Below are positions 2,969 through 12,920 of a DNA stretch of 12,920 nt, piece after piece. The DNA is taken from assembly GCA_963833125.1 (NCBI GenBank), contig CAWHWX010000029.1:1-12920 (forward strand), written 5' to 3'. The stretch is from Candidatus Bathyarchaeota archaeon (lineage in GTDB: Archaea; Thermoproteota; Bathyarchaeia; 40CM-2-53-6). The notes under the pieces were generated by a model that worked only from the letters and a program-made list of their open reading frames with translations, had not been told where the DNA came from and made no database searches. Position 1 is the first letter of the stretch; each line of letters begins with the position of its first letter. The translations under genes were made by a program, and so were the position numbers.

Positions 2969-3039
2969 TTCGCAAACTCTAATATTGGTTCTGACGGTGC
3001 GCGCATCGCAAATTGAACCGTCGTTGTTAGTCGTCAGAA

Positions 3040-3069
3040 GTGTGTGTGGGTCTTTTGGTGCGCACACAC
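3040..3069 (+). repeat. Palindromic repeat R1 (9-bp arms, 12-nt spacer), att-like
   Basis: GTGTGTGTG-GGTCTTTTGGTG-CGCACACAC. Matches the reverse complement of 3611-3640 at 29/30, and 3040-3062 matches 4440-4462 at 21/23. Confidence 0.9.
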
Positions 3070-3121
3070 ACACGAAAAATCCATAATCTCCTCTAGATAT
3101 TTGTGGTTCGAGTGGTTAATA

Positions 3122-3556
3122 GTGGGAGCTTCTTTTCAGGTAACGTTTGACTGCTTGGACCCTGACGGGCTGGCGAATTTTTGGGCGCAGGTATTGCATT
3201 ACAATGTGCAAGATCCACCAGCGGGTTTTGGGTCATGGGAGGAGTTTCTGAGAGCGCAGGGGATTCCGGAGAGTGAATGGAACTCTGCCTCTGCAATTGT
3301 TGACCCTGAAGGAAAGGGTTCACGGGTGTACTTCCAGAAGGTGAGTGAGCCGAAGACGGTCAAGAACCGCGTGCACTTAGATCTTAATGTCAGTGGCGGA
3401 AGGGCAGTTCCTGAGGAGGAGCGCAAGAAGAAAATTTACGCTGAAGCCGAACGCTTGATCGGTCTGAAGGCCACGAAGCTGGATGTCGTTCAAGAGCACG
3501 ACGAGTTCTGGATAGTTATGTGCGATCCAGAGGGAAACGAGTTCTGCCTTCAATAG
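3122..3556 (+). CDS. VOC / glyoxalase-bleomycin resistance family protein
   Basis: FQVTFDCLDPDGLANFWAQVL...FQKVSEPKTVKNRVHLDL...DPEGNEFCLQ. GTG at 3122 is the likelier start, because the called start at 3044 lies inside repeat R1. Confidence 0.9.
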   Translation: MGASFQVTFDCLDPDGLANFWAQVLHYNVQDPPAGFGSWEEFLRAQGIPESEWNSASAIVDPEGKGSRVYFQKVSEPKTVKNRVHLDLNVSGGRAVPEEERKKKIYAEAERLIGLKATKLDVVQEHDEFWIVMCDPEGNEFCLQ

Positions 3557-3610
3557 AAACAGGTAGCCGTCAGACACAACAGAAGCAAATCGTGGTCAAT
3601 GTTTCCAAAT

Positions 3611-3640
3611 GTGTGTGCGCACCAAAAGACCCGCACACAC
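3611..3640 (-). repeat. Palindromic repeat R2, inverted relative to R1
   Basis: GTGTGTGCG-CACCAAAAGACC-CGCACACAC with perfect 9-bp arms. The outer flank ACAACGACGGTT (3642-3653) is also the exact reverse complement of 3016-3027. Confidence 0.9.
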
Positions 3641-3706
3641 TACAACGACGGTTTCACCGAAATCCACAACTTGAAGTTCTATGCATCATAGACATGTGTT
3701 TCTGTA

Positions 3707-4418
3707 GTGCCCCGGATTCCCTTAGTTGACGACTTGACTACCGGAACGGTCCCTTCAGGATCCAATATCTTACTGGAGTTTGCAGGTGCGTCACAATGGT
3801 ATAATGCCTGCCTAGCCATAGCGGCAGGATGGCTTAGGCAAGGCGGAAGCGTAAGCTACAACGCCGCACGTTCGTTTCCCAGACGATGTTCGTTCCAAAC
3901 TAAAGCGAGCGAAACTGAATGTCGAATCGCTTGAAGCGGAGGACAAACTCAGAATCTGGGACTGGTACACAGCCACACTCGGGAAGAAATCCACCGAAAA
4001 ATACGCGTACGACTCCCTGAAGGTCGCCGATCTTAGCATCCGATTTGCACGTGAAGACATGGGCGCAGCCACGTACCAAATCACCGGCTGGATTAGAATT
4101 GCTGATAACATTGCTACGCTTGGAAGGTTCAACGATGAGAAGATTTGGACTGAATTTTTCCTAACTAGAGGTTTCCCAAGTGTTTCATTAAGGGGAAGAA
4201 CAACGACGCTTCATGGCATTCTTCGGGGTATTCATAGTAATTGGGTGTATGAGCAACTCGAAGCCGCGGCAGACGGCGTTATCGACTTGAAAGTTGAAGA
4301 AGTTGACGAGGAAGTCAGCAACCTAATCCGAGTCAGAAACATGCGGGATGTTGAATTCGACTCACGATGGCATCGACTCAGGATCGACGAGAACCTGAAC
4401 ATTACCCTGCAGAAGTAG
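3707..4418 (+). pseudogene. Stand-alone degenerate KaiC-like/RAD55-type ATPase, +1 frameshift near 3875 (or sequencing error)
   Basis: MPRIPLVDDLTTGTVPSGSNILLEF...YNAARSF continues in the +1 frame as PDDVRSKLKRAKLNVESLEAEDKLRIWDWYTATLG..., in frame with ORF 4059-4418 (EAAADGVIDLKVEE...LIRVRNMR). Confidence 0.8.
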
Positions 4419-4439
4419 CCAACGGTCGCCCTTGGTTTT

Positions 4440-4462
4440 GTGTGTGTGGGTCTGGTGGTGCG
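4440..4462 (+). repeat. Half-site repeat R3 overlapping the tRNA 3' end
   Basis: GTGTGTGTGGGTCTGGTGGTGCG: left arm and spacer of R1. The right arm is replaced by the tRNA acceptor stem. Confidence 0.8.
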
Positions 4463-4616
4463 GCCGCCGGGATTTGAACCCGGGCGTCTTCTCGCCCGTT
4501 TTCTGTGCCGGGCGATCAGAAGCGTGGCAGGCTTGCGCCAGCAGATATTCTCTGCTGTTCCCGTCCTAGACCAGGGTATCCAGGCCTTTACGATTGGCCT
4601 TCTAGACTACGGCCGC
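4456..4616 (-). tRNA. tRNA-Gly(GCC) with three introns (4576-4601, 4533-4558, 4486-4516) and encoded CCA
   Basis: Removing the introns gives GCGGCCG UA GUCU AGCCUGGUCUA GGAC G GGAGC CUGCCAC GCUUC UGGC CCGGG UUCAAAU CCCGG CGGCCGC A CCA, a complete cloverleaf. Anticodon at 4526-4528. Each intron is a hairpin inside a bulge-helix-bulge-like motif. Confidence 0.93.
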
Positions 4617-4645
4617 AACCATAAAACAAGAGCGTTGCAACGCCG

Positions 4646-4652
4646 TATAAAA
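4646..4652 (-). promoter_or_regulatory. TATA box of tRNA-Gly
   Basis: TTTTATA on the minus strand, 30-36 nt upstream of the mature 5' end. Confidence 0.55.
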
Positions 4653-4735
4653 CCATAAGCCTATCGGATAAGAAAGGCGGGGTGGCGCTCCATGGTGGGC
4701 ACAAATACAACCACGACAGTTTTCGACGTGAGACG

Positions 4736-5842
4736 TTAGATGTTTTCCGGGTTCAAAGCTTTACGTTTGATTAATCCGTAGGCGATCATCATGAAGATGG
4801 CGAGCATTGCTAATCCAAGAGGATACTCAGGAATCGGAGGAGCGGTAGTAGTTGTGGTCGTAATTGCGGGGTCGCCGAACTTCTGAATCCGGTTATTGTT
4901 CTTGTCGACTACGTACACAGAACCCCCCACGGCTACCCCAAGTGGACCATTGAATTGGCCGTCGCCAGAACCAGACGAACCCCACTTCAATAGGAACCCG
5001 CCTTGGCTGGTGAATTTCTGAACGCGAGCGTTGCCAAAATCGGAAACGTAGACGTTCCCCGAAGAATCAACAGCAATACCACTGGGTCTGTTGAATTCCC
5101 CGTCACCACTGCCGGTCGATCCCCACCCCTTCACGATCCCAAACCCATCAATTGCGCCGGTACGCGTAAACTTGCTTACGCGGTCATTGTTTGTGTCGGC
5201 TACGTAGACGAAGCCCGCGCTGGAATCGATGGTGATGCCTAGTGGGTTGTTGAAGGCACCGTCCCCGCTACCAGTGAACCCCCAACAACCTATGAAAGTG
5301 CCGGTGCTTGTGAAGTATAGGATACGATTGTTGAAAGTATCCGCAACGTAAACGTTCCCTGTACTCGCGTCTACGGCCAGAGCTGCAGGGTCATTGAAGC
5401 CTGGATTGCCGGTGGAACAGCCGTTAGAAGATTCAAAATGACCCCACTTGGTAATGAAAACGCCGGAACTCGTGAACTTCTGTATACGTTGATTGACTTG
5501 GTCGGCGACGTAGACGTTGCCCGAAGTCGGATCTACGGCAACGCCTTCTGGACTGTTGAACTGGCCGTCGCTGGAGCCAGAGGAACCCCACTTCGTAACG
5601 AAGAGCCCGGTGCTAGTGAATTCTTGGATGCGGTTATTGCTAGTGTCGGCTACGTAGACGTTTCCCGAGGAATCAACGGCGACGCCCCAGGGAAAGAGGA
5701 ATTCGCCATCACCAGACCCGCTTGAGCCCCATTTGAGTTCGAATACACAGACGTTGCATCCCTCAAATGCGTGAACAATTGTAGCCGAGGTGCTCATTAA
5801 TGTCACAAGGAGGAGTCCTACCGGAATCATCTTTTTCAGCAT
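4736..5842 (-). CDS. Secreted NHL-repeat (six-bladed beta-propeller) surface protein with PEF-CTERM-like anchor
   Basis: Signal peptide ending VHA, six F-x-x-P-x-G-[VI]-A-V-D...VYVAD..N.RIQ repeats, poly-Thr linker, then IPEYP, a TM helix and KRK. Confidence 0.92.
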   Translation of the reverse strand: MLKKMIPVGLLLVTLMSTSATIVHAFEGCNVCVFELKWGSSGSGDGEFLFPWGVAVDSSGNVYVADTSNNRIQEFTSTGLFVTKWGSSGSSDGQFNSPEGVAVDPTSGNVYVADQVNQRIQKFTSSGVFITKWGHFESSNGCSTGNPGFNDPAALAVDASTGNVYVADTFNNRILYFTSTGTFIGCWGFTGSGDGAFNNPLGITIDSSAGFVYVADTNNDRVSKFTRTGAIDGFGIVKGWGSTGSGDGEFNRPSGIAVDSSGNVYVSDFGNARVQKFTSQGGFLLKWGSSGSGDGQFNGPLGVAVGGSVYVVDKNNNRIQKFGDPAITTTTTTAPPIPEYPLGLAMLAIFMMIAYGLIKRKALNPENI

Positions 5843-5973
5843 TCAATGCGCAGCTCGGGTTTCGGCCCAAATAATCTGCGGTGAACCCAAGCATATATTG
5901 TCTTCTTGTCCAAGAAACCGCGCCAATATGCTTGCCAAAGCTTTCGGGATCAGAGGCTGTTGAAGTAAGAAAG

Positions 5974-5991
5974 CTCGATCTAAGGATCGAG
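5974..5991. terminator. Perfect 7-bp hairpin with T-rich flanks on both strands
   Basis: CTCGATC-TAAG-GATCGAG, followed by GTTGTTTTT on the plus strand and CTTTCTT on the minus strand. Confidence 0.3.
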
Positions 5992-6256
5992 GTTGTTTTT
6001 CTGGTATTGAAGGTTAGACCGCTGGCGGTTGGCGTACCAATGCTACCACCATTCCCTCCTGCGAAGACGATTATGACATCGTTAGGGTTTGAGGTTGTCA
6101 GCGTCGCCGAGCAGGAAGCTGGCTCGAGGCATCTTCGCTTGAGGCTACACCGTCTAGGGTAAGGGTTGGCGGCGCATGAACAGGCAACGGCTCCAAAACC
6201 AAGAAAAACGTAACCAAGACTACTAGTAATCCAAATCCAGCCGTTACACGTCTCAT
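5985..6256 (-). pseudogene. Frameshifted, apparently truncated secreted protein
   Basis: GAGGAG then ATG at 6256: MRRVTAGFGLLVVLVTFFLVLEPLPVHA-PPTLTLDGVASS (signal peptide). The frame shifts near 6130 into SCSATLTTSNPNDVIIVFAGGNGGSIGTPTASGLTFNTRK. The 3' boundary is approximate. Confidence 0.6.
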
Positions 6257-6297
6257 GAACACTCCTCTCACCTTCTAGACTACCATTAGGCTTCAGG

Positions 6298-6349
6298 TAA
6301 ACCGGGTTGTCCAAACCGAGTTATGATCGGTCTTCTAGACTACGGCCGC
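6298..6349 (-). pseudogene. Isolated 5' fragment of a tRNA-Gly-like gene (positions 1-21) with its own 15/16 intron (6307-6334)
   Basis: GCGGCCGTAGTCTAG [AAGACCGATCATAACTCGGTTTGGACAA] CCCGGTTTA. 6332-6353 is identical to 4599-4620 (22 bp). No anticodon or T arm follows. Confidence 0.85.
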
Positions 6350-6375
6350 AACCGAAGCAATCGTAGGCTATAGGA

Positions 6376-6390
6376 ACATAAAGTGCTTTC
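6376..6390 (-). promoter_or_regulatory. BRE/TATA-like promoter upstream of the tRNA fragment
   Basis: GAAAGCACTTTATGT on the minus strand. TTTATG lies 28-33 nt upstream of position 1. Confidence 0.4.
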
Positions 6391-6442
6391 TGGATATCCT
6401 GCATCCCGAGGCTCGAAAATTCTGTGAACTTGTCGTAGGTTG

Positions 6443-7528
6443 TTATCGTTGTTTTAGACTCGCTACTTGTGTTGTGGCTGTTGCGGTCTGTTCTTCGATA
6501 AAGAAGCGCTTCCTTGCCCAAAGCGCCACGTTGACTAAGCCTATGAGTACGGGGACTTCGAAGAGGGGTCCAATGACTGCGGCGAATGCTTCCCCAGAAT
6601 TGATGCCGAAAACGCCGACTGCGACCGCTATGGCGAGTTCAAAGTTGTTACTGGCTGCCGTGAAGGATAACGTGGCTGTTTCTGGGTAATTGAATTTCCA
6701 TGCCTTAGATATGATGAAGGATAGCGTGAACATGATGAGAAAATAGCTTACGAGGGGTATTGCGATTCTAACAACATCCCACGGTAACGCCAGGATGTAT
6801 CCTCCTTTCAGAGAGAACATTACCACGATTGTGAATAGCAACCCGATCAATGCTGTTGGGCTCAATTTTTCAACGAATGTTCCATCGTACCAATCCTTTC
6901 CCTTCTTCTGTACTAGCACAAATCTAGTCACAATTCCCGCGATGAACGGTATGCCGAGATAGATGAAGACGGTTCGGGCAATGTCCCAAACGGAAATGGC
7001 CACGGTTACCCCGGAGCCATGTGCCACCCAGGAGGACAGGAGTGTTATGAAGAACCACGCGTAAACGGAATAAAGTGCGACTTGGAAGATTGAGTTTAGA
7101 GCGACTAGAACGGCGGCGTACTCGTTGTCGCCTTCTGCGAGCATATTCCATACTAAGACCATGGCGATACACCTGGCCAGCCCTACGATGATTATTCCAA
7201 TCCGATATTCGGGCATGTCGGGTAGGAACAGCCATGCCAGACCGAACATCAGGAAAGGGCCAACCAACCAGTTCTGGAACAAGGAGACCCCGAACATCTT
7301 CCAAGCCTTTCCCACCTTCGAGAGTTCATCGTACTTCACACGAGCTAAAGGCGGGTACATCATCCAAAGCAGGCCGACTGCGATTGGAAGCGAAATTGTG
7401 CCTACACTCAACGTCTCGAGAAGCTTCGGGAGCTGTGGAAAAACACTACCTGCGCCCACCCCGATAGCCATCGCTAGAAAAATCCACAAGGTAAGGAATC
7501 TATCTAAAACCGAAAGCCGCTGCGTCAT
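6443..7528 (-). CDS. acr3: ACR3-family arsenite efflux transporter
   Basis: [38 protein letters not shown] and GPLFEVPVL signatures. Confidence 0.97.
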
Positions 7529-7580
7529 CTAGGGCCGCCCCGGATCACCGATTCGTGCGGTAGTATTCGAGTGGAGTTGG

Positions 7581-8315
7581 TTAGGTAGGCTTCGTAGCCG
7601 TCCATGCCACGCTTTTCACTTGGAGCCCTTTCGAGGTCATTTCGTCGTTTATGGGGTGTGACTCATCCGACCCTTCGATGCCTATGAATCCTGACTTTTC
7701 CAGTAGACCTCTATACTCGTTAAAGGTGACGGCGCCCGCAATGCATCCCGCCCACTCTTCCGGGTTAACCTCCTTTCGACTTTCCTGTGTTGCCACCATG
7801 TCCGACACAGAGATTCTGCCACCGGATTTGAGAACACGGTAAATCTCACGGAATGCTGACTGCTTGTCCGGGACCAAGTTCAGGACGCAGTTGCTTATGA
7901 CTAGATCCACCGAATTGCCTTCAATGGGCATGTGCTCGATCTCACCTAATCGAAACTCAACGTTCGGGTAATCATACTTCTTGGAGGTTTCACGGGCTCT
8001 GAAAATCATCTCGGGCGTTGCATCAAGGCCAATAACTCTCCCCTTCGCCCCAACAAGTTTCGAAGCACGAAACACGTCAACACCCCCGCCGCTGCCCAAA
8101 TCTAGCACGGTTTCGCCTTCGCGGACCTGTACGTGCGTTAGGGGGCTTCCACAGCTGGCGACAACTTGAGCCGCCTCTTCGGGGAGATCGGTTTCAGTTG
8201 CCGATGTGCTGCAACAGGTTGCACTCTCGTCTCCGCAGCAGGATTCATTCAGTACGGCTAGTTTGCGGTATCTTTCTCTAACGGCATTCTTGATTTGTTC
8301 CTCGTTCAGCGTCAT
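7581..8315 (-). CDS. arsM: Arsenite S-adenosylmethionine methyltransferase
   Basis: SCGSP, VLDLGSGGG, ISNCVLNL and WAGCIAGA with the conserved cysteines, plus N-terminal CC pairs, in ars context. Confidence 0.92.
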   Translation of the reverse strand: MTLNEEQIKNAVRERYRKLAVLNESCCGDESATCCSTSATETDLPEEAAQVVASCGSPLTHVQVREGETVLDLGSGGGVDVFRASKLVGAKGRVIGLDATPEMIFRARETSKKYDYPNVEFRLGEIEHMPIEGNSVDLVISNCVLNLVPDKQSAFREIYRVLKSGGRISVSDMVATQESRKEVNPEEWAGCIAGAVTFNEYRGLLEKSGFIGIEGSDESHPINDEMTSKGLQVKSVAWTATKPT

Positions 8316-8341
8316 GCTTCTTCAGCTCTTAGAATACGAAG

Positions 8342-8365
8342 TAACATATTTAAGAATGTTAATAT
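8342..8365. promoter_or_regulatory. Divergent arsM/arsR promoter with putative ArsR operator
   Basis: AT-rich 70-bp gap. Inverted repeats TAACAT-N8-ATGTTA (8342-8361) and ATATT-N10-AATAT (8346-8365) overlap TATA-like TTTAAG/TTAAATA. Confidence 0.5.
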
Positions 8366-8385
8366 AATCTTTACTCCTGATCAAC

Positions 8386-8784
8386 TTGAGTTCCGTTATC
8401 GCCCAAGCTCGAGTCAAACGCCTAGTAACATTAGGCTTAGTGGATACTACCTGCACGCCAACCGAACGCATTAACGAACTGAAAGCCAAACTTGACTTTG
8501 ATGATCCCAAATTCCGAGAATATGAAACATGCTTCTCATCACTAGGTGACGTAACAAGATTGAAGATTCTGAAAATCATAGGCGACGAGGAATTATGTTC
8601 ATGTGAAGTTATGGCTGCGCTGGATTTAACACAACCAACTACCTCGCACCATCTCGGAATACTGGAGAGAGCAGGTGTTCTGAGTTCCAGGCGCAACGGA
8701 AAATGGGTATTCTACCGAATATCCAACCCAAAGATCAAGGCGTGGCTCACCAAGAGTTTCGATTTGATGGAGGATCTGGTTTGA
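8386..8784 (+). CDS. arsR: ArsR/SmtB family metalloregulator
   Basis: LGDVTRLKIL, ELCSCEV (alpha-3 cysteine site), QPTTSHHLGILERAG, RRNGKWVFY. Confidence 0.93.
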   Translation: MSSVIAQARVKRLVTLGLVDTTCTPTERINELKAKLDFDDPKFREYETCFSSLGDVTRLKILKIIGDEELCSCEVMAALDLTQPTTSHHLGILERAGVLSSRRNGKWVFYRISNPKIKAWLTKSFDLMEDLV

Positions 8785-9174
8785 CGAAACGCTGTTCTCT
8801 TCGTCTGCATCGAGAATGCGGGTAGAAGCAAAATGGCTGAAGGCTTCGCAAGAGCATACGGCTTGGATGCGTCCAGCGCAGGCACCGTACCGGCAGAGAA
8901 AGTGAACCCGGTTGTGGTTCAAGCGATGATGGAGAGAGGCATATCTGTTCCTGGAAAGCCGAAGGTTCTGACGGAACAAATGATCACCGAGTCTGACCTG
9001 GTTGTGACGATGGGATGTTCTGTTCAAGAGGTCTGTCCCGCACCATTAGTTCGGGAAATGCAGAAGAAACTTGTAGATTGGCAAATCGAAGATCCGAAAG
9101 GAAAAGGAATCGATCAGGTTAGAAAGATCTCCTCGGAGATCGAAAGGAAAGTCTTGGAACTATTGAAGCGCTAG
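8781..9174 (+). CDS. arsC: Thioredoxin-type arsenate reductase / LMW-PTP family; 5' end affected by a 1-base shift
   Basis: P-loop VLFVCIENAGRS lies at 8794-8829, upstream of the called ATG at 8833. Also SAGT, VVTMGC...CP and DWQIEDPKG. TTG at 8781 (after GGAGGA, overlapping the arsR stop) is one base out of frame. Confidence 0.85.
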
Positions 9175-9246
9175 TCAGGATCGCCAGAGTCCGACCCCAT
9201 GTGCTGTAGCTGCCATGGACACCCCTCTGTTTCCAATTTTGGGTAG

Positions 9247-10163
9247 GTGAATGCTTTGCTAAGGCGTTCTGCACTTTTTATGGTGCTCGCCGCGGCCTGC
9301 TGGGGTTTCGCAACAGTCATGAGCAAAGGAGTTTTGGCATATATCCCACCGTTGACTTTGCTCGTAGTTCAACTGACCGCGAGTATTGCCTCTCTCTGGA
9401 TTGTCATCTTTGTGGGGAAGGTAAGGATTCATCTTGACAGACGGATTCTTTGGCCCGCATTATTTGGTCTGCTCGAACCTGGCCTTGATCATACGTTAAG
9501 CCTGATTGGTTTGACTTGGACTACTGCAAGCATGTCTACGCTGATTTGGGATGTCGAACCAATTATCATCATAGCTCTGGCATTAGTTATTCTTCGCGAG
9601 CACGTGACCTTGCCTCTCTTGACATTTTCAGTTATCGCCATTTCGGGCGTCGTATTGGTGGCTGACGTTAATACGAACATGCAGGGGAACAGTGTTCTCA
9701 TAGGCAATTCGCTTGTTCTTGCAGGTGTCTTCTGTTGCTCCCTCTACGCGGTGTTAACCCGTCGAGTTGTGATTACTCTGGACATACTGCCGCTAGTGGC
9801 TTTGCAACAGACTGTCGCATGGATTTGGGCGTTGGCGATATGGCCGACAGAACTACTTCACGGAGTCATTCAGAACCTCTCAACCATCAGCGTGATCGGA
9901 TGGGGCTGGGCTGCGCTGTCAGGCATATTGTACTACGCGGTTGCCTACTGGTTCTACGTTAGCGGTTTGAAGAGGACTCCCCGAGCTTTGCTGGATTCTA
10001 CTTCAATCTAATCCCGATCTTTGGGGTTACGGGAGCTTACTTTTTCCTCGGTGAACGGTTAACAGCAACGGAATGGTTAGGGGCGATAATCATTCTATTC
10101 TCAGTCGGCAGTTTATTCTGGTTACAAAGAGGAGAAGCAAATCTCACAACTGCGTCCGTGTAA
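9247..10163 (+). CDS. EamA/DMT family transporter, frameshifted near 9981
   Basis: Two EamA repeats. After KRTP the other frame reads SFAGFYFNLIPIFGVTGAYFFLGERLTATEWLGAIIILFSV... to TAA at 10161-10163. Confidence 0.88.
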
Positions 10164-10354
10164 CTTACGACCCGTCAAAATTAGACCGTTTCAATGTAGA
10201 ATCCGACCAGGGTGTTTTGCAGGATGGCAGCCACAAGGGCCACTTATACCAGAGCATAATCATCCCAGATGGGTCGTTGCGGACCGAGTGACTTACAGCG
10301 ACTATGGAACCAGTCAATATATGCCGAACTCGCCCAAGATGGATGGTGAAATGA

Positions 10355-10771
10355 TTGTTGGATGACGAGCACTTCCTTGACGCTTTTCAAAAGGGGACAC
10401 TTCCCGCTGCTGAATTCAACCACCAAGGTCACTTACGCTTATCCTGGCTAATTCTTCGGCGCGACGGTTTCAGTGAGGGTACCCGCAATATTTCAGAAGG
10501 AATCAAGCGTTTCGCGACGTCAAAGGGAGCTTTCAAGAAATACCACGAGACGCTTACTCAATTCTGGCTGCGGCTCATATTCCACGCAATCGAGACCAAA
10601 CCCGACATCTCCAATTTTGAGGATTTTCTCAACTACTTCCCATTTCTTCGTAGCAAAGTCCTCCCACTGAGACACTGGCGCTCCGAAACCTTGCAAAGCG
10701 AGAGGTCTCGTCAAACGTGGGTTGGACCTGATCTGATTTCACTCCCTTCGATGCGTGCCCATTGTGATTAA
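10355..10771 (+). CDS. Conserved hypothetical protein (F-x-H-x-x-H-L-R...YHETLT-x-FW type)
   Basis: Intact ORF after a GGTGA site. The motif pattern resembles a widespread uncharacterised family, and I cannot assign a function. Confidence 0.7.
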   Translation: MLDDEHFLDAFQKGTLPAAEFNHQGHLRLSWLILRRDGFSEGTRNISEGIKRFATSKGAFKKYHETLTQFWLRLIFHAIETKPDISNFEDFLNYFPFLRSKVLPLRHWRSETLQSERSRQTWVGPDLISLPSMRAHCD

Positions 10772-10831
10772 GCTCTCGCTAAGCATAACCGACAAGCAAC
10801 GCAAGTGCGCGGACTGGCCGAGCAGCTTCTA

Positions 10832-11241
10832 CTATGCCATACCCATCTTAGCCAATTTCTGGAAATCAGTCATACTCTGAACAAGATCTGTTTGACTGAC
10901 TATTCCAATTATCTTATCGTGTTCGGTTACGACCAGCCTTTTCACCTGCTTTTCTACCATCCGGCGAGCCCGTCAATTAGCGGAGCCGTAGCATCAATCG
11001 TGACCAAGGGCGCAGTCATCATCTCTGCAACGGTGACTTTCGATGGATCAGCGGCTCCGGCCACTATCTTGTCAACCAAGTCCCTTTCGGTGACTATTCC
11101 GAAGGGTAAACCATCTCTATTAGCTATCAAGGAGCCGATCCGTTTTTCCACCATTAATCGTGCGGCCTCTCGTGCCTTGGCTTTGGAATCTATCGAAATG
11201 ATCGTTCGCATGATTTGGCGTACGGTGATTTCGGATGTCAA
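10832..11241 (-). CDS. Tandem CBS-domain protein, frameshifted near 10969
   Basis: First CBS: EAARLMVEKRIGSL...GIVTERDL. The second CBS continues in another frame as ARRMVEKQVKRLVVTEHDKIIGIVSQTDLV...MGMA* (stop at 10832-10834). Confidence 0.88.
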
Positions 11242-11433
11242 CTTAGTGCCCCTACCGTTAATTGGCTGAATCCAATTAAAGCATTCTTGTGGTATTCAAG
11301 TAGCGGCGGAAGGCCTATTCCGAAGTCCCCGACCGATCACACGAGCCAAGATAACAAAGGATGCACTCCAGTGGCGTTTAGTTTAACTGAGAATCTTTGA
11401 GCGCTAGATTCTTGGTGCGTATTTGTTGGGTTT

Positions 11434-12798
11434 CTAGAAGAGCTTGTCCTTGTCCAGTATTAATTCGGTTTCCTCGTATTTCCTTCCATGCATTTTCTTG
11501 ACGATAAGGAAGCGTCGGGATCTTCCCTGCGACTCTTTCTCGTAAATGTCAATGACACCATCGAAAAGGTCGATTATCGTTTGGCTCTCTTGGGAGGATG
11601 AGATTAAAGGGTTCAGAGTTGCGAGAATCGTGAAGCCTTCCGATTTACGCCTAGCAATGAAGTCATCTAGCCATTTGCGGGTTGTGAGCGCTTTGTGTTC
11701 GAGTAGTACGTCTGAGAGCAAGTCTATGATGAGTATTTTTCGCTTGCTAGGATTAGGGGTCGCGCCGAGGGCATCGCTGGAAGATATGTTCAGATCGTTG
11801 AGGTTCATAACATTCGATATTTTGTAAAGGTTGTTTGGACGAGGAACGATGTTGTCCGCCTGGGTGGTCAGGACATAGAAGTTGCTCGTATACATCTTAG
11901 CCAGATCTTGACTCCTCGCCAAGTCACGAGACATGAAGAAAACGGAGTTCCCTGACGACAAGCTGGACTCAATAATCTTTCTGAAGAGTAGATCTCTTTC
12001 GTCGCATGGAGGCGACAGTATCAGGATTGCGTAACCATATGACAGACCTCCTCCTAGAAGGTTGTCTAATTCTAGATATCCCGTAGAGAAGTTGTTCGCG
12101 GTTGATGCATTTGCAACGACCTCGGCGGACTCAAGTTGTGAGCTGCCGACAACCTTAGCGGTTGCTCGTTCCCGCTTTCTACGCCTCATCATAACCATCA
12201 ACGCGGCAAATATGGCCAAGGCGACGACTAGCCCAACGGCGCCGACGACTCCAAGGTTAGACGAGTTTGAGGAAGCTGTAGTGTTTCCGGTCGAAGTTTG
12301 ATTTAGTTCAGTTGCTGTCGTCGATGCAACTTGTGGTTCACCTACTTGCACATTTATGAACTGGCTACCGTTCGCGATGGCGCTGGGGCCAGCGAACACC
12401 CATGCTAAGATTTGCAGTTTCCAATTGATGACTCGCGATGGTGCTCTAACGGCATTCAGGATTGTAACGTTTACAATCTTAATGTAAGGTGGGTTGGCGA
12501 CCTGAATAGCGCCTATCCCGGTACTATTGCTTGTGATAATTCCGCCCGTTTCGTTTGATATGACGTCAACTCTCGCAATCACGTTCTGATTGACAGGATT
12601 GCATGTTAGCATGAGATGCGTTGAGATGAGGAGGGTTTGATTCAATTGCACGGTCGCAGGATAATCGATTCCCGTAATCTCCACCTGACAAAGTGGAGCG
12701 GCGCTAATGTTGGGAATCCATACTTGCCCGGCCACACCCAACGCCACTAGAGCGATTAGAAGTAAGATGAAGAGCGGCTCGGCCCGCGGTTTAGACAT
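11434..12798 (-). CDS. Membrane receptor-like protein: extracellular beta-rich domain, Ser/Thr linker, TM helix, cytoplasmic degenerate KaiC-like domain
   Basis: Signal/TM at the N-terminus, two Cys and several N-x-S/T sequons, TM followed by RRRKR. Then FSTGYLELDNLLGGGL, SPPCDERD in place of Walker A, LIIDLLSD, DLFDGVIDIYE and RRFLIVKKM. Confidence 0.85.
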   Translation of the reverse strand: MSKPRAEPLFILLLIALVALGVAGQVWIPNISAAPLCQVEITGIDYPATVQLNQTLLISTHLMLTCNPVNQNVIARVDVISNETGGIITSNSTGIGAIQVANPPYIKIVNVTILNAVRAPSRVINWKLQILAWVFAGPSAIANGSQFINVQVGEPQVASTTATELNQTSTGNTTASSNSSNLGVVGAVGLVVALAIFAALMVMMRRRKRERATAKVVGSSQLESAEVVANASTANNFSTGYLELDNLLGGGLSYGYAILILSPPCDERDLLFRKIIESSLSSGNSVFFMSRDLARSQDLAKMYTSNFYVLTTQADNIVPRPNNLYKISNVMNLNDLNISSSDALGATPNPSKRKILIIDLLSDVLLEHKALTTRKWLDDFIARRKSEGFTILATLNPLISSSQESQTIIDLFDGVIDIYEKESQGRSRRFLIVKKMHGRKYEETELILDKDKLF

Positions 12799-12920
12799 GT
12801 AAATACGCCAAACTTTACAAGATTATACGAGATTCGTGAATATGTGCCTTTGTAAGCTCCACGAAAGTTGCGCCTCTAAACGAACAAACCCTCACGTCAT
12901 TCTAGGAAATCGGGAAGTCT

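Follow-up and report, generated by a model that had tools for sequence, protein, structure and literature searches.

An orphan 5' piece of a tRNA-Gly(GCC) gene on a Candidatus Bathyarchaeota contig, very probably left by an insertion at the 5' end of the gene

Of the 39 tRNA-targeting elements in a published survey, all but one used the tRNA gene's 3'-distal region, and thaumarchaeal attachment (att) sites proved short, with a median of 17 bp; integration into the 5'-distal region is rare but recorded, for example for CalSub-E1 in a tRNA-Ser gene (Krupovic 2019, PMC6563490). In a Caldiarchaeum subterraneum population, a two-intron tRNA-Thr gene is preceded at 1.8 kb by a 5' tRNA-Thr(GGU) fragment, which covers positions 1-27 and has an upstream region of its own, and the authors proposed intron gain and fragment scattering via mobile-element integration (Sugahara 2012, PMC3293823). 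Partial tRNA fragments in Aeropyrum pernix and Thermosphaera aggregans have been interpreted as what integration or rearrangement at tRNA loci left behind (Chan, Cozen & Lowe 2011, PMC3218864). Here we describe an orphan 5' piece of a tRNA-Gly(GCC) gene on a Candidatus Bathyarchaeota contig, C29, for which the Caldiarchaeum tRNA-Thr locus is, by analogy, the closest precedent. We conclude that the orphan is very probably a non-functional relic of an insertion, i.e., the former promoter-proximal end of the tRNA-Gly(GCC) gene beside an ACR3 gene. The window analysed is the whole of C29 (12,920 bp), which belongs to bin G000 (39 contigs, 3.07 Mb, 87.8 % complete, 7 % contaminated). Bare coordinates refer to C29; C18 and C6 are sister contigs in the same bin, and numbers with G, L and X denote genomes of relatives, sequence stretches (L096-L099 are metagenome contigs) and sequencing runs, respectively.

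The orphan occupies 6353-6298 on the minus strand and consists of a GGTT leader, positions 1-15 of tRNA-Gly(GCC), a 28-nt intron-like stretch and a D-loop ending at A21; an intact gene lies 1.73 kb downstream on the same strand. What the initial annotation had read from the letters of this pair was borne out, with every quoted letter correct: GGTT plus GCGGCCGTAGTCTAG (6353-6335) is identical to 4620-4602 of the intact gene, the intron is homologous but diverged (28 nt, AAGACCGATCATAACTCGGTTTGGACAA, in the orphan versus 26 nt, AAGGCCAATCGTAAAGGCCTGGATAC, in intron 1 of the intact gene), and the D-loop differs (CCCGGTTTA versus CCTGGTCTA) with the tRNA sequence stopping at A21. Exact identity spans 22 nt (6353-6332 = 4620-4599), and the whole piece matches the intact gene in 44 of 58 aligned columns. 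The 15-mer GCGGCCGTAGTCTAG is present exactly twice in the window, where 0.16 occurrences would be expected even with three mismatches allowed. Reading the sequence downstream of 6298 revealed neither an anticodon arm nor a T-arm, and the 3' strands of the D-stem and of the acceptor are missing as well.

The orphan also departs from positions that are fixed in working copies. Its D-loop variant, CCCGGUUUA, differs from the GGTCTA shared by every one of the 27 intact Gly genes without intron 1 that were inspected in the genus, although a GGTTTA D-loop in working GCC genes of another genus (G071, G073) is a caveat to reading this change as decay. Its promoter block, U1, keeps a TATA-like box 26 nt before GGTT; the 51 nt ahead of GGTT are identical in C18, C6 and G019, and C29 alone lacks 3 nt just after the box, bases that are also present in a contig from an unrelated soil run, X4. 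The private 3-nt deletion in U1 and the two D-loop changes point to relaxed constraint on the orphan, which, with its essential parts absent and with changes at positions fixed in working copies, has the predicted character of a relic.

The intact gene appears to be a multi-intron archaeal tRNA gene, in that 4616-4456 yields a cloverleaf with a Gly anticodon once its inserts are removed. Intron 1 (allele A) follows G15 at 4601-4576, and introns 2 and 3 lie at ~4562-4537 and ~4520-4488. Scans of the window with ARAGORN and with Rfam at the gathering score missed the gene, which surfaced in a permissive-threshold Rfam run as a weak match to the tmRNA clan with its acceptor stem and T-arm aligned. 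When the three inserts were removed in silico, ARAGORN called tRNA-Gly(GCC) in 233 of 350 boundary combinations. In the minimum-free-energy (MFE) fold the acceptor stem and T-arm pair and each insert forms its own hairpin, and relatives that lack intron 1 align exactly across its site. The gene is 97.8 % identical to its counterpart in C18 and 97.2 % identical to that in C6. Another multi-intron tRNA gene of the bin (GGGGCCGTCGTCTAG..., C16 326836-327018, plus strand) likewise has an intron at the corresponding place, after CTAG, whose ends resemble those of intron 1 (AAGAG...CTCTGGACAA), as if one intron type occurred in two tRNA genes.

Intron 1 comes in two natural alleles. Allele A is carried by the intact C29 gene, C18, C6 and G015 and allele B by G016 and G019, which answers the earlier question of which allele relatives carry; intron 1 is absent from eight other genus genes, and a longer intron occupies the same place in another genus (G070). 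MFE folds are alike for the orphan, the intact gene and the G016 gene, a 3-nt bulge standing between the helix GUCU(A)/(U)GGA(U/C) and a hairpin of 5-6 bp (i.e., a helix of 4-5 bp, a 5' bulge of 3 nt and a helix of 5-6 bp, without a clean second, 3' bulge of 3 nt). The pairing described in the initial annotation thus stands for the helix GUCU/GGAC, for the G-C to A-U change, which is located in the intron-1 hairpin, and, of the 3-nt bulges, for the 5' one; a clean 3' one is not predicted by the folds. The orphan is identical to G016 and G019 at 51 of 56 positions, and the five differences, of which the loop of the hairpin has three and the D-loop two, are all transitions. The covariation that had been credited to the orphan itself is, on this comparison, the difference between two natural working alleles, since the same change marks allele B in the functional G016 and G019 genes; it is therefore no evidence of selection on the orphan. 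The orphan is B-like, yet its closest flank relatives, C18 and C6, carry allele A.

Relatives show the locus with an empty site. The stretch found ahead of the orphan in C29, namely U1 and the end of the ACR3-type gene, leads in both C18 and C6 directly into a complete tRNA-Gly(GCC) gene. C29 4440-4620 corresponds to C18 126012-125833 and C29 6329-9177 to C18 125857-123008, two stretches that abut and slightly overlap in C18, so that C18 125833-125857 directly joins what C29 separates; the same holds in C6. In G019, U1 and a complete gene follow one another uninterrupted. Furthermore, the 880-nt contig from run X4 joins 4573 to 6305, skipping 1,731 bases. The empty site that the initial annotation had called for is thus present in C18, C6, G019 and X4, and C29 therefore carries a 1,733-bp insertion (one repeat copy counted).

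These comparisons were made within a region that exists in three versions in the bin (C29, C18 and C6, 92-96 % identical), which we take as at least two strains, or a segmental duplication, binned together. C6 matches C18 121437-129370 over its whole length at 96 % identity. C29 is collinear with both at 92-95 % except for several replaced segments, of which there are five relative to C18 in 12.9 kb (1-1311, 3026-4439, 4621-6328, ~9178-10835 and 11320-12920). The flank that bears the orphan is conserved and collinear (6329-9177 is 94.7 % identical to C18, and 6321-9177 is 92.1 % identical to C6), and G016 matches the ACR3-side flank at 84 %.

The insert (4621-6331) is bounded by the direct repeat of the tRNA segment, 22 nt of it exact and lying inside a 56-nt homologous segment, and the tRNA gene is rebuilt at one end. 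At this end, 72 nt beyond an intact NHL-repeat protein gene, lies a second promoter block, U2. U2 and the gene are 92 % identical to the G016 locus, where U2 precedes a complete gene; the four metagenome contigs that turned up with the U2 pattern (L096-L099) all have U2 ahead of tRNA-Gly(GCC) too, and TTTTATACGG-type boxes precede most genus genes. U2 is a natural promoter of tRNA-Gly(GCC), native to relatives. The other end of the insert is a 35-nt joint followed by a broken gene fragment, whose homology to its paralogs begins only ~8 nt before ATG 6256 and which lacks the upstream region conserved in six of the seven paralogs inspected in the bin. These seven comprise five open reading frames (ORFs) of 268-281 amino acids, four of which end in a PIPEYPLGL-type C-terminal signal, and two short ones (74 and 112 amino acids). 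The secreted proteins of the bin (the NHL protein and paralogs on C32 and C18) share the C-terminal PIPEYPLGL motif, a hydrophobic stretch and basic residues, which we take to resemble an archaeosortase-type sorting signal. No close ortholog of the NHL protein was found in species-representative genomes (80 loci, the best 58 % identical, none of them an ortholog beside a tRNA-Gly gene). The insert is unique in the bin, and its GC content (0.52-0.53, versus 0.48-0.50 in the flanks) gives no clear sign of foreign origin.

Taken together, the insertion and the relatives' empty site, the exchanged promoter, the two natural intron alleles, the absence of the rest of the tRNA and the orphan's changes at fixed positions are all observed. 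In the sequence of events that we hold to be very probable, a 1,733-bp block recombined into the 5' end of tRNA-Gly(GCC), with its right end bringing the natural promoter U2 and a 5' segment. The gene was thereby rebuilt from U2, the incoming 5' part and the resident body (4616-4456), stranding the old 5' end (U1, leader and positions 1-21 with intron 1) upstream, where it decayed. The insertion at the 5' end, the replacement promoter and 5' exon, and the displaced original that the initial annotation had suggested are thereby upheld by the empty sites and U2, while its attribution of the event to an element is not, given that no integrase was found. As to mechanism, recombination may have been position-specific, at the border of D-loop and D-stem (21/22): a site-specific recombinase with a 5'-distal att site could have exchanged strands within the shared 5' segment, the enzyme acting in trans or having since been lost. 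We regard such a recombinase as the likeliest mechanism, at about even odds. Strand exchange inside the 22-nt identical core would give a B-like orphan beside flanks whose relatives carry A, and a recombinase of this kind would leave a shared end point at the D-loop/D-stem border, the duplicated block extending from the gene's 5' end as far as the region of crossover.

A shared end point is what the genus reveals. A pattern search of the family's 59 genomes returned 43 intron-1-less 5' pieces in the genus, 37 of which were inspected; of the six outside the inspected set, one is the bin's own UCC gene and five adjoin matches to the 3' part of the GCC gene. Complete genes account for 27 of the 37 (16 UCC, 11 GCC), while eight cease to match at 21/22 (two in G004 and one each in G002, G010, G011, G014, G018 and G019), one breaks later, inside intron 2 (G018), and one is cut by a contig end. 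The metagenome contig L097 holds a second orphan, made of U2, positions 1-15, an A-type intron and CCTGGTCT, after which unrelated DNA follows until the contig ends 121 nt on. Once C29 and L097 are counted in, ten pieces stop at 21/22 with their ends no more than 2 nt apart, which points to position-specific recombination. This end point recurs in 8 of 23 genus genomes (this bin included) and at both GCC and UCC genes. Beyond the break follow sequences of five or more types without relation to each other, although G004, G011, G014, G018 and G019 share mutually related ones at their UCC locus. In G004, G011, G014 and G018, orphans with their own promoters lie 3-10 kb upstream of an intact tRNA-Gly(UCC) gene and form arrays (Table 1); the DNA between the pieces encodes restriction-modification and metabolic functions, a STAND NTPase and a secreted repeat protein. 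The G004 orphans gave no tRNA score in Rfam. In two G004 pieces, the post-break sequence ends in a T-arm-like and acceptor-like stretch. A second tRNA-Gly-like box after every orphan was tried as a general feature and dropped (local alignments versus shuffled arms gave 0.016 for C29 and 0.042-1.0 for six others). Recurrence at 21/22 across a genus without a recombinase in cis was not met in the literature searched on integration and tRNA gene fragments.

Table 1 Features of the tRNA-Gly(GCC) locus on C29 and positions of tRNA-Gly 5'-piece arrays in relatives
Feature	Position	Strand	Remarks
ACR3-type arsenite carrier gene (Pfam SBF)	6443..7528	-	conserved chromosomal flank bearing U1 and the orphan
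TATA-like box CTTTATGT of promoter block U1	6376..6383	-	predicted promoter of the complete tRNA-Gly(GCC) gene of C18, C6 and G019
GGTT leader of orphan	6350..6353	-	opens the 22-nt exact direct repeat; GGTT also before the G015, G016 and G019 genes
Orphan tRNA-Gly positions 1-15, GCGGCCGTAGTCTAG	6335..6349	-	same letters as intact gene
Intron-1-like stretch, allele B'	6307..6334	-	three loop bases off allele B of the functional G016/G019 genes
D-loop piece CCCGGTTTA (positions 16-21)	6298..6306	-	tRNA likeness stops after A21
35-nt joint of unknown origin	6263..6297	-	third copy of GTAGTCTAGAAGG at 6283-6271, 13/13 identical to 4610-4598
Promoterless, frameshifted, 3'-truncated fragment of secreted-protein gene family	5843..6262	-	signal-peptide frame from ATG 6256 stops after 52 codons; other frame continues
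Intact NHL-repeat protein gene, 368 amino acids	4736..5842	-	signal peptide and same-type C-terminal sorting signal; Pfam NHL 1e-55, six repeats; cargo of insert
Promoter block U2, 43 nt (TATA TTTTATAC at 4652-4645)	4621..4663	-	now drives the intact gene (predicted)
GGTT leader and intact three-intron tRNA-Gly(GCC) gene	4456..4620	-	gene proper 4616-4456; CCA encoded
tRNA-Gly 5'-piece array, G004:C8	L108 12129, 9132, 6309		
tRNA-Gly 5'-piece array, G014:C3	L109 10134, 5402		
tRNA-Gly 5'-piece array, G011:C2	L110 12069, 5914		
tRNA-Gly 5'-piece array, G018:C2	L111 4082, 12376; L112 5550		

Judged from its sequence, the C29 locus fits an attL-type partial tRNA duplicate in direct repeat, with an empty site and a shared end point, and no integrase goes with it. 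The missing integrase and several further results weigh against a site-specific insertion as we favour it. Pfam scans of the 20 window ORFs and a six-frame search of the whole bin with PF00589 found no integrase or other mobile-element gene on C29. Likewise, 30 ORFs in and around the G004, G011, G014 and G018 arrays (only ORFs of at least ~80-100 amino acids, started with ATG except in G004) included no integrase in Pfam, and six-frame PF00589 searches found none on G004:C8, none inside the fetched G011 and G014 arrays and none in the whole of G018. The cargo is ordinary, being an NHL-repeat protein here and restriction-modification, STAND NTPase and metabolic genes elsewhere, and from one locus to another the arms past the break vary, unlike those of a single element family. 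On its left, the insert ends in a patchwork made up of a 35-nt filler and a promoterless, frameshifted gene fragment, a joint that looks more like illegitimate joining or later decay than like a clean att arm. No free element bearing an attP site turned up, in that the tRNA-Gly 5' segment, sought in viral contigs both with its intron and lacking it, had no matches. Finally, the junction of orphan and insert is seen only in contig C29.

The same relic could have arisen without a site-specific recombinase. A break at or near 21/22 would have been repaired from a relative's DNA, foreign or sister, with the tRNA body as the sole homology; one-ended homologous or break-induced copying would have run through the donor's 5' part, U2 and upstream genes, and the far end would have been joined illegitimately to the broken resident 5' end. 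This course accounts better than a recombinase for the absent integrase, the ordinary chromosomal cargo, the presence of a promoter native to relatives at the rebuilt gene, and the patchwork at the left joint. In this joint the fragment is cut ~8 nt before its ATG, and the filler, which repeats 13 nt of the nearby gene, may be a templated insertion. Repair of a break also accounts for the diverse sequences after the break, and five variable segments in 12.9 kb relative to C18 show that the region recombines often. It does not account for the fixed end point: break repair gives no reason for ten pieces to end within 2 nt at 21/22, unless some nuclease cuts there. Nor was a donor with an NHL gene beside U2 and the tRNA found among 22 genus genomes or four metagenome contigs. 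We hold repair of a break to be the main rival, possible though on balance unlikely.

The recurrence in the genus also raises a bolder possibility, namely that its tRNA-Gly genes hold a dedicated gene-capture site at 21/22, where promoter-bearing 5' pieces pile up as arrays and each would mark a captured block of ordinary genes. We consider this quite unlikely. If it were true, the missing recombinase in cis would imply an integron-like system or reliance on a site-specific nuclease, and promoters and intron-1 alleles would be shuffled between lineages, which may have spread intron 1.

Whichever way the orphan arose, it may have been put to a new use, a proposal compatible with either origin. 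The stranded U1 and the tRNA-like leader would drive or process a transcript of the inserted genes, for example by cutting at the retained bulge-helix motif. Consistent with this, the orphan has kept its TATA-like box 26 nt ahead of GGTT, a further box of this kind is not evident from the orphan to ATG 6256, an AGGAG motif stands 5 nt before that ATG, and the intron helices are intact while three loop and two D-loop bases have changed. However, five changes would all spare the helices in about 4 % of cases by chance (our own estimate), which makes this weak evidence; the first downstream ORF is the broken fragment that stops after 52 codons, the NHL gene begins 500 nt further on, and 3 nt were lost from a promoter stretch that is invariant in working copies. 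Reuse of the orphan thus seems improbable.

Because the bin combines 7 % contamination with three locus versions that are 92-96 % identical, an assembler could have made the joint of orphan and insert from at least three versions of the locus (C29, C18 and C6). In its C29 form, 6244-6324 is covered by no public run; of the four runs whose reads were mapped to the contig, only X4 reaches this interval, in the empty-site form, and none covers 6163-6243. Among public sequencing runs, seven DNA runs contain small shares of the window and no RNA run contains it. The junction 22-mer had no matches in metagenome contigs. Against such a chimera, the sole repeat common to both sides is 22 nt, below the usual final k-mers of assemblers, and the orphan extends 34 nt beyond that repeat before the joint. 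The orphan copies no allele in the bin, being B-like with five private changes and the private 3-nt promoter deletion. Furthermore, the same architecture occurs in eight other assemblies, and run X1 has two error-free contigs within the insert (5420-5688 and 5706-5856). An assembly artefact is accordingly very improbable.

The initial annotation had offered, as its second proposal, a trans-spliced piece of a split tRNA-Gly, which might be recognized by missing Gly(UCC/CCC) genes and by a partner 3' piece with a complementary leader. A promoter-like box of its own and a defined end position favour this reading, and split and tri-split tRNAs exist in Caldivirga (PMC4033280). The census of isoacceptors in the bin, which mixes strains and may thus pool close relatives, found all of them complete and contiguous: three GCC genes (C29 4616-4456, C18 125837-125996 and C6 3539-3380), one UCC gene (C16 463744-463649) and one CCC gene (C7 ~90313-90480). 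The last of these, on the plus strand, has several inserts and an unusual T-loop (UCCCAAU) and lies 5 nt from a contig end. ARAGORN with introns mislabels several multi-intron genes of the bin; its calls Gly(tcc) on C7 6131-6769 and Gly(ccc) on C9 were discarded, and the UCC and CCC genes were found by sequence. The bin has exactly five Gly-type 3' ends (T-arm plus acceptor), each within a complete gene, and the bin-wide search for a partner found none: 72 places match the complement of the 15-nt trailer with at most three mismatches, one being the window itself, and the other 71 have no T-arm within 140 nt, in an assembly that is 87.8 % complete. With an intact GCC gene 1.7 kb away, the orphan changed at positions fixed in working genes, contiguous GCC, UCC and CCC genes and no partner piece, a functional split tRNA is barely credible, the reservation being that the bin is incomplete.

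Several neighbouring features were noted. A 32-bp inverted repeat (3039-3070 and 3610-3641, 31/32 identical) brackets a glyoxalase-like gene (3044-3556) and sits in the second variable segment, which begins 18 nt past the tRNA CCA; related stretches of 40-80 nt on C1, C4, C11 and C28 suggest that it may be a small repeated element. The ACR3-type carrier heads an arsenic-resistance cluster (6443-9174) together with an ArsM-like methyltransferase (7581-8315) and a low-molecular-weight phosphatase/ArsC-like ORF (8833-9174). G016 additionally has a putative MIP-channel-like ORF and a KaiC-like gene between the ACR3 gene and the tRNA gene. On C28 (109348-110556), the truncated 74-amino-acid paralog of the secreted family adjoins a tyrosine-recombinase gene (109710-110138) and a tRNA gene (110482-110556), a classical integrase-tRNA layout elsewhere in the bin.

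The orphan matters because it shows that DNA was inserted at a tRNA gene, whose working copy is now under an exchanged promoter. Use of the 5' end is the rare orientation, and incoming DNA must therefore supply a promoter. Since the duplicated segment includes an intron with different natural alleles, intron alleles and promoters can pass from one lineage to another through recombination at tRNA genes, a model that Sugahara et al. 2012 proposed from one Caldiarchaeum locus (PMC3293823). The recurrence at 21/22 with no integrase nearby makes the responsible enzyme a directly testable question. In annotation, both the relic and the three-intron gene escape standard tRNA finders.

Compared with described systems, the C29 orphan resembles the split and tri-split tRNA genes of Nanoarchaeum and Caldivirga in being a promoter-bearing 5' piece with an internal end, but split pieces have a partner with complementary flanks and no contiguous gene for the same tRNA (PMC4033280). 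The C29 locus has neither trait. Details of split and tri-split genes are reportedly given by Fujishima in 2009. The orphan is also like the stray tRNA fragments of Aeropyrum and Thermosphaera, where synteny breaks beside tRNA genes are common; those organisms are hyperthermophilic Crenarchaeota, and the sections of the paper that treat them report no recurrent end point or array (PMC3218864). As in 5'-distal integrations, the insert is flanked by the tRNA's 5' part in direct repeat, it must bring a promoter, and the block of identity is short (22 nt exact here, versus a median of 17 bp for thaumarchaeal att sites); unlike the C29 insert, such elements are recognized by their integrase and mobile-element genes (PMC6563490). 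The Caldiarchaeum tRNA-Thr insert encodes a DNA recombinase and recurs at six genome places, which the C29 insert does not, the fragment covers positions 1-27 rather than positions 1-21 plus an intron, and a new intron lies at the junction, whereas both C29 copies bear intron 1 in different alleles (PMC3293823). In both, a 5' fragment with its upstream region lies ~1.8 kb before a complete multi-intron copy, fragment and complete gene differ in their introns, an empty-site version co-occurs and the metagenome population is heterogeneous (PMC3293823). Taken alone, the orphan is an ordinary scar of a known kind, one that recurs at the same spot in related archaea.

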